From Escherichia phage WPEC2, in sequence record PV691511.1: 64,000 bases of DNA; one strand, written 5' to 3'. Below are positions 61,062-61,170 of this stretch, one piece after another; position 1 is the first letter of the stretch, and each line of letters starts with the position of its first letter. The notes below the pieces were generated by a model. That model was given only the letters and a program-made list of their open reading frames with translations, was not told where the DNA came from and made no database searches. The translations under genes and the position numbers were made by a program.

Positions 61062-61170
61062 CCTTGATCTAATCTCTTAGATAACTTATATTTAATGCGT
61101 AGGGCGGCAATGGTGCCGCCCCTATGTGATACATCTTATCAGTTTTTAAAACGTTGTCAATAATATTTTT
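61062..61170. promoter_or_regulatory. back-to-back promoter-like motifs flanking one shared hairpin
   Basis: Plus: TTGATC..TATATT then GGCGGCAATGGTGCCGCC; minus: TTGACA..TAAGAT reading into the same hairpin. Confidence 0.4.

Follow-up and report, generated by a model that had tools for sequence, protein, structure and literature searches.

The stretch analysed here (the window) comprises 64,000 nucleotides of one strand of Escherichia phage WPEC2 (PV691511.1). At 61062-61170 a plus-strand and a minus-strand promoter-like motif face each other across one stem-loop, and a first-pass annotation pointed out that each would read into the antisense of the neighbouring gene. It reported a similar configuration near 61585-61700 and proposed either a recombination or cassette boundary or a bidirectional regulatory RNA element. 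The question is whether the convergent arrangement with a shared hairpin belongs to the phage genome at all, and which parts of it do. We conclude that this arrangement is almost certainly not a real feature, and that the real element is a directional promoter with a leader hairpin.

A consensus scan recovered both motifs at the first site, i.e., TTGATC (61064) and TATATT (61092) with a 17-nt spacer on the plus strand, matching 9 of the 12 consensus positions, and TTGACA (61160) and TAAGAT (61133) with a 16-nt spacer on the minus strand, matching 10 of 12 and carrying TG 5' of the -10 hexamer. The hairpin GGGCGGCA-ATGG-TGCCGCCC (61102-61121) sits between the two motifs, with fold energies of -18.5 kcal/mol on the plus strand and -18.4 kcal/mol on the minus strand. 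Taken singly, the plus-strand motif is weak, since 9/12 matches are common (40 found vs 22 expected in 8 kb). A chance match of one of the two motifs had been named beforehand as a way to refute the reading of this site, and it holds for neither: the hairpin core GTAGGGCGGCAATGGTGCCGC has 13 copies in the window vs 0 expected, the same plus-strand stretch precedes a hairpin, a Shine-Dalgarno sequence (SD) and an ATG in Schickermooser, and the minus-strand promoter is repeated letter for letter at 36977-37054, with conserved counterparts in WPEC6, PD114 and tuntematon. In relatives, the plus-strand motif is the upstream part of a cassette for the next plus-strand gene (the Schickermooser_00287 homologue). 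The identity to Schickermooser spans the whole stem-loop and ends at ...GGTGCCGCC, which assigns this leader hairpin to the plus-strand cassette; the final C of the hairpin appears to be supplied by the neighbouring contig, as a chance extension of the stem. For the minus-strand promoter, the identity to relatives ends at ...GTATCACATAG, where its own, different hairpin should begin. The hairpin seems to be shared, and folds almost equally well in antisense, because ...GCCGCC is butted against CCTATG.... It should be noted that the two motifs and the hairpin first described at this site are therefore present, the hairpin belonging to the plus strand only; their arrangement would be the product of a join between contigs. 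The features of this and the related sites are collected in Table 1.

Table 1. Positions of promoters, hairpins, cassettes and repeated terminal pieces in the window; assignments to contigs are putative.
Position	Strand	Feature	Remark
36957..36979	-	Hairpin GGGCGGTGGAATACTTCCCCGCC, probable true hairpin of the 61160->61133 promoter	Followed by SD and ATG of the tuntematon_43 / WPEC6_CDS0013 homologue
44789..44827	+	Putative bridging mini-contig: copy of hairpin A, then SD and ATG of the probable true downstream gene	
60792..60871	+	Intact canonical cassette ahead of gene 60869-61060	Reference example
61042-61120		Putative terminal ~77-mer of left contig	Exact copy at 44728-44806, 79 nt
61064..61092	+	Weak sigma-70-like motif TTGATC-17-TATATT	Conserved at 98-100% in about 20 phages
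61102..61121	+	Type-A leader hairpin GGGCGGCA-ATGG-TGCCGCC(C)	Plus-strand cassette only
61120-61197		Putative terminal ~77-mer of right contig	Exact copy at 36977-37054, 78 nt
61133..61160	-	Strong sigma-70 promoter TTGACA-16-TGATAAGAT	Apparent contig end severs its own hairpin and gene
61594-61679		Reverse complement of 62868-62954, 87 nt	97.7% identity, inexact
61604..61662	-	Intact canonical cassette TTGACA-17-TAATAT-10-hairpin A	Promoter 61662->61634, hairpin 61623-61604
61680..61756	+	77-mer at the second join, putative first 77-mer of the next contig, beginning exactly at hairpin B (61680-61700)	Exact copy at 47405-47481, 77 nt
62868..63137		Third stack of 77-mers, 270 nt	Two complete canonical cassettes face to face, 62885->62943 and 63040->62982

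The window best matches E. coli myophages of the genus Phapecoctavirus (Stephanstirmvirinae). WPEC6, WPEC1 and WPEC4 match it at 99.6-99.9%, but piecewise only, and ESCO13, tuntematon, Mt1B1_P17 and others match at ~96%. Stretches 97-100% identical to those of E. coli Phapecoctavirus also stand in records named Campylobacter phage B15, Pseudomonas phage PsgM04F, Klebsiella phage ZCKP1, Acinetobacter phage ABPW7 and Serratia phage KKP_3264; these host labels look doubtful, or the host range looks broad.

In a repeat search, ~77-nt units fell into dozens of families, occurred in both orientations and often lay exactly 77 nt apart. Among the maximal exact repeats, 123 have a length of exactly 77 nt and most fall within 73-78 nt, while the lengths of BLAST pieces peak at 77 nt, with a second peak at 152-155 nt (~2k-1). 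Exact repeats of at least 60 nt cover 11,778 nt, or 18% of the window. Whole kilobases (36977-41355, 44420-45087, 45556-49466, 33622-34483 and 58757-59670) are built of ~77-nt modules in the tandem order AAABBBCCC, shuffled in both orientations; written in rows of 77 nt, the sequence at 46.3-47.1 kb follows this order with rows that differ only in their last or first 1-6 letters. The match at lag 77 was 0.47 in 45556-49466 vs 0.27 at other lags and 0.26 at lag 77 in unique sequence. Open reading frames in the 77-mer stretches are at most 88 aa long, while coding density is high in the adjoining unique sequence. About 100 relatives besides phAPEC8 and ZCKP1 have, like these two, a single A next to a single B, both within one gene. 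The clutter was found only in WPEC1, WPEC4 and WPEC6 (all from the same host strain), at 20-24 places each, and a search of the phage collection for the chain of 77-mers returned no record that covers more than 35% of 36000-42500.

It is hard to imagine a natural origin for a change from ABC to AAABBBCCC with a 77-nt unit. A k of 77 is a common default, and it is the largest default k of SPAdes for short reads; the assembler and the k value were guessed here from the 77-nt period. Minimal contigs and bubble branches of a k = 77 de Bruijn graph, when concatenated, yield just such a pattern. The window resembles such unmerged unitigs or bubble branches in that its repeat lengths peak at k and near 2k-1, in that the k-mers on either side of each block boundary turn up again at the true neighbour, and in that it contains arrays of k-length pieces differing only at their ends. 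The module kilobases look like unmerged k = 77 assembly fragments, and not like phage sequence in its natural order. Inside the clutter, a 148-nt perfect palindrome (39058-39205; 71-bp stem) contains two terminator-like GC hairpins and probably represents two inverted copies of one fragment placed head to head. The records of WPEC6 (PV763039), WPEC1 (PV659873) and WPEC4 (PV682947) are 155-161 kb long vs 145-152 kb for most relatives, and WPEC6 fuses window position 60889 directly to 63061 within an annotated CDS (locus L002, 4870/4871); the three records probably need re-assembly.

Unique blocks were delimited by marking positions in exact repeats of at least 60 nt. Near 61120, these blocks are separated by exact-repeat stretches of 154-156 nt (2x77), and two of the stretches, 61042-61197 and 61601-61756, are centred on 61119/20 and 61678/79, i.e., on both sites that had been flagged. 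The earlier remarks that the arrangement is odd for simple gene expression and that the conserved unit may mark a boundary were borne out.

When the terminal pieces are followed to their copies, the sequence continues as it does in the relatives. Beyond the copy that ends at 44806, it reads GATAATGAGGAAAATAAAATG... / GATAATGAGGAAAATAAAATGGAAACT..., as in Schickermooser, with which the order 61120 to 44807-44860 is colinear (44784-44860 is itself the reverse complement of 59053-59129). Ahead of 36977 stand the hairpin GGGCGGTGGAATACTTCCCCGCC, an SD and an ATG, matching WPEC6, PD114 and tuntematon, and the order colinear with these three leads from 36300-37054 to 61198 and onward. Position 62954 is continued by the reverse complement of 61679-61486, as in tuntematon, and phAPEC8 has the same co-directional order. 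The path colinear with tuntematon runs from 61680 to 62954, then through the reverse complement of 61679->61120, and then through the reverse complement of 36976->36300; the tuntematon genes here are almost all co-directional, each with its own cassette. Schickermooser, tuntematon, PD114 and phAPEC8 were used as independent assemblies. Each of the reference-type neighbours is backed by a 77-nt overlap in the window, whereas the adjacency of 61120 and 61121 has no such overlap.

The junction at 61120 was found in none of 50,697 phage records, in which its halves never occur together. Schickermooser, DE16, WPEC1, WPEC4, WPEC6 and others match the left half (61030-61120) at 100% identity; for the right half (61115-61200), PD114 and PD06 reach ~91%. 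A 30-mer across the join was sought in IMG/VR, JGI metagenomes and GTDB genomes and matched none of them exactly, whereas each of the two reference-type joints does occur in IMG/VR. Similarly, the junction 61679/61680 occurs in no phage record, each half matching many records and the two never matching together; the sole place that spans both halves is a gapped match of 78.6% in WPEC6.

From this sequence evidence, we consider it highly probable that the facing-promoter arrangement arose where two k = 77 de Bruijn contigs were joined end to end, and that it is not biological. The left contig would end at 61120. This is where the plus-strand cassette's leader hairpin has its 3' foot, and in the real genome that cassette would drive the next plus-strand gene. 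The right contig would be inverted and would start where the hairpin of the minus-strand cassette should begin; with the contig starting at this position, the minus-strand promoter would lose its own hairpin and gene, which are still found at 36.5-36.98 kb. The second site, 61679/61680, would be another contig join. Against this reading, a phage population that was mixed or recombining may itself have tangled the assembly graph.

At this second site, the likeness to the first that had been reported holds in part. There is a canonical minus-strand unit (61604..61662), followed by an SD and an ATG (61576-61574) of a 34-aa gene that ends at 61472. The consensus scan found no plus-strand promoter, and the plus-strand hairpin at 61680-61700 is a different stem-loop that shares nothing with the minus-strand unit. 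The -10 region AATATT is palindromic and thus the same on either strand, which probably misled the eye. The contig that appears to start at 61680 begins exactly at hairpin B, so that it would lack the promoter found ahead of this hairpin both in tuntematon and in the 47405-47481 copy; the expected -10 region does precede the copy at 47405 and is absent at 61680. In the third stack of 77-mers, the hairpins of the two facing units are separated by 38 nt, and the minus-strand gene (a tuntematon_48 homologue) is cut after a few codons. The facing units at 62885-63040 are another join artefact. They are also the source of the only signals obtained with Rfam 15 (59.5-63.5 kb, E-value threshold of 1), which returned no family and only sub-threshold matches to microRNA families at 62915-63012; we read these matches as spurious, arising from the inverted pair of cassettes.

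Another reading takes the junction at 61120 as real. Promoter-early stem-loops (PeSLs) have been described in the T4-type phages RB49/phi1, PST and nt-1 (PMC2839356; PMC4122927), and in RB49 and phi1 crossovers were mapped in or beside the stem-loop, so that breakpoints at a stem-loop are also a product of real PeSL-mediated recombination (PMC2839356). The identity breakpoints at 61120 do lie within the hairpin, and natural indels of cassettes are known in this phage group. PeSL-type recombination between inverted hairpin cassettes could accordingly have inverted a gene block in the phage or in a subpopulation, leaving a chimeric cassette whose orphan promoter fires antisense into gene 60869-61060. 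We regard this as unlikely, as the flanks are exact 77-79-nt copies of other pieces of the window and continue there as in the references, other block boundaries in the window bear this 2x77 signature too, the 61120 join is absent from every public collection searched, and the true hairpin and gene of the orphan promoter are intact at 36.5-37.05 kb. An inversion also needs two matching joints, and the other end of the block (61679/80) strips a promoter from its gene. A related possibility, that the join is real in a part of the population and the k = 77 tangle is the trace of ongoing cassette recombination in the lysate (inversions, swaps and PeSL-like mini-circles), seems quite improbable. 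If it were true, there would be a chimeric cassette with convergent early transcription, as well as PeSL-type shuffling in a second, unrelated family of large myoviruses.

With the assembly join as the preferred reading, the element that remains is the cassette itself, which we scanned in the window and in seven related loci (tuntematon, WPEC6, Schickermooser, PD114, phAPEC8 and two IMG/VR contigs). The 47 units found share one layout: TTGACA with at most one mismatch, 15-18 nt, TAnnnT, a hairpin, an SD and an ATG. The stem is GC-rich and 7-10 bp long. It begins 9-11 nt after the -10 box in 35 of the 47 units and is found between the boxes in none; the gap from stem to ATG is mostly 17-24 nt and contains the purine-rich SD. 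An ATG follows the stem within 2-30 nt in 45 of the 47 units, and the only two exceptions (61160->61101 and 34476->34415) both abut 77-mer joints. The latter, at 34415-34476 on the minus strand, is a second orphan promoter with a hairpin and no downstream start codon, and it abuts the 77-nt module ATTTTAACTGGTTCTTACAAG.... The cassette precedes many small early genes in Phapecoctavirus and Justusliebigvirus phages. In the window its hairpins are absent from the first 20 kb and are confined to regions of small genes from 32 kb onward, where the flanking genes are annotated as hypothetical proteins and the upstream flanks are, by eye, AT-rich.

Each of the 23 distinct hairpin variants folds, with energies of -9.4 to -15.5 kcal/mol; in a separate folding analysis of cassette stem-loops, z-scores were -2.2 to -4.2. 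The energies of the variants come from per-sequence folds; a MAFFT alignment of the 23 variants left the 3' arms unaligned, as the stems differ in length, and RNAalifold was uninformative on it. The base of the stem, GCGG/CCGC, is conserved, and the upper stem varies in a compensatory manner (CA:UG, GAA:UUC, GAAC:GUUC and (U)GGAA:UUCC). G-U pairs are present in 11 of the 23 variants and give the sense strand the better fold: it is more stable in 20 of the 23, by 1.5 kcal/mol on average (Wilcoxon p = 0.001, which is indicative only, the variants being non-independent). This bias points to an element that works at the RNA level and in one direction. Many of the hairpins also have a conserved tail, (C)ACAACAGA(A)GAGAG, ahead of the ATG, which exceeds the needs of a Shine-Dalgarno sequence and which we take to bear a loose resemblance to boxA-like sequences. 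A boxB-boxA-like antitermination site of the lambda-nut or rrn kind, suggested by the GCTCACAACAGA that often follows the hairpin, seems a less likely explanation: this tail occurs only in a subset of the units, and GCTC is part of the stem.

The same results bear on the proposal that the hairpin acts on both strands, either as a terminator of convergent units or as a two-strand regulatory RNA between genes 60869-61060 (+) and 61180-61461 (-). Near-equal fold energies on the two strands and the convergence of the two genes on the hairpin, in the window as given, would speak for it. However, the equal stability is made by the join, the canonical copies with G-U pairs fold worse in antisense, and the gene convergence is itself an artefact. 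In relatives the hairpin always lies 3' of the promoter and 5' of the ATG, on one strand. The junction hairpin has no T-run on either side and was not called by the terminator scan, and Rfam gave no match to it; the promoter-linked hairpins in general lack T-runs. Classical terminator-like GC hairpins with T-runs do exist elsewhere in the window (4617-4636, 9830-9847, 12595-12619, 13931-13948, 14243-14266 and 14570-14587). A bidirectional role, which the first-pass annotation had favoured as one of its two options, is therefore very unlikely: the position of the ATG and the sense-strand bias both contradict it.

The other option, a recombination or cassette boundary, survives in part for the unit and not for the two sites. 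In the IMG/VR contig IMGVR_UViG_3300014004_000001 (760-1000), compared with window positions 60700-61120 and 44807-44860, gene 60869-61060 and one unit are lacking; the homologue of 60399-60785 is followed by a single promoter-hairpin unit, and directly after that by the ATGGAAACTATCGC... gene. This relative offers one clear case of a natural PeSL-type indel that takes a gene together with its cassette. Tuntematon lacks gene 61180-61461, yet the flanking unit is absent on one side. The unit appears to delimit gene cassettes in relatives, in line with the PeSL concept (PMC2839356), whereas 61120 and 61679/61680, with their exact 77-mer copies and their junctions absent elsewhere, appear to be contig boundaries and not recombination joints.

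Parts of the cassette have been annotated before. In the phAPEC8 record (JX561091; locus L007, 2479-2498 and 1463-1519), the hairpin 20-mer GTAGGGCGGCAATGGTGCCG is labelled "putative promoter determined with PHIRE" and the sigma-70 promoter immediately before it carries the label "putative host dependent promoter determined with MEME". These two features correspond to the sigma-70 promoter and the hairpin 20-mer of one cassette; the annotation mentions neither the stem-loop nor the fixed promoter-hairpin-SD layout. A literature search on phAPEC8, Phapecoctavirus, Stephanstirmvirinae and the WPEC phages found no paper that describes the promoter-hairpin cassette and no transcriptome, and the rV5 paper gives promoters and terminators with no promoter-hairpin unit. 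The parts are already annotated in phAPEC8, and the unit, as a promoter-hairpin cassette, is without a published description in the literature searched. That the GC-rich 20-mer is a phage-specific promoter, giving the site two promoter classes as its PHIRE label implies, is extremely doubtful, since PHIRE reports only over-represented 20-mers, the motif lies at a fixed 9-11 nt 3' of a near-consensus sigma-70 promoter, and its sequence varies with the base pairing kept, which argues for a structure and not a recognition sequence.

The closest known counterpart is the PeSL. Both elements combine a near-consensus sigma-70 early promoter, an adjacent stable GC-rich stem-loop, an SD and an ATG in a repeated intergenic unit of ~60-100 bp; both are concentrated among small genes of unknown function, and in both the cassette and its gene can be present or absent between relatives. 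In contrast to the T4-like myoviruses that carry PeSLs, the phages studied here are Stephanstirmvirinae (Phapecoctavirus and Justusliebigvirus). The stem-loops of RB49 and phi1 lie mostly between or over the -35 and -10 boxes, with a minor class downstream of -10 (PMC2839356), whereas here the stem-loop neither lies within nor overlaps the promoter and is always downstream of -10, in the transcribed leader. One PeSL stem-loop of RB49/phi1 was measured to attenuate read-through (PMC2839356). Terminator activity and the formation of mini-circles belong to PeSLs, while our knowledge of the present cassette comes from its sequence. The 61120 junction also differs from a PeSL crossover in being, most probably, an assembly join.

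As for function, transcription by the host RNA polymerase should start ~7 nt past the -10 box, which would place the hairpin 2-5 nt from the 5' end of the mRNA. A stem-loop near the 5' end protects E. coli mRNAs with ompA-type leaders from 5'-end-dependent decay; such a stabiliser is expected within about 4 nt of the 5' end, with decay that depends on its stem. Stabilising 5'-terminal stem-loops of E. coli mRNAs, the ompA leader among them, were reportedly described by Emory, Bouvet and Belasco in 1992. The cassette resembles such leaders in having a stable hairpin predicted a few nucleotides from the 5' end and 5' of the ribosome-binding site; the analogy is one of position only, as the 5' ends here are predicted. 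By this analogy, the 5'-proximal hairpin would protect the early transcript against RNase E-mediated, 5'-end-dependent decay, and it may also attenuate read-through from the upstream cassette. The hairpin would thus most likely serve as an mRNA stabiliser or attenuator, a role that we infer from its position and by analogy. The literature searched on this phage group yielded no transcription start sites and no RNA half-lives. The shared ~60 nt of cassette sequence would in addition supply homology for the gain and loss of gene cassettes between related phages.

These results carry a warning on data quality. The window and the WPEC1, WPEC4 and WPEC6 records seem to hold kilobases of unmerged 77-nt fragments and mis-ordered contigs, and features that lie on block boundaries in these records deserve distrust. 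The flagged arrangement would prompt a search for antisense transcription that almost certainly does not exist. The gain for the biology of these phages is modest: the cassette of Phapecoctavirus and Justusliebigvirus is a clean, directional and structure-conserving analogue of the PeSLs of T4-type phages.
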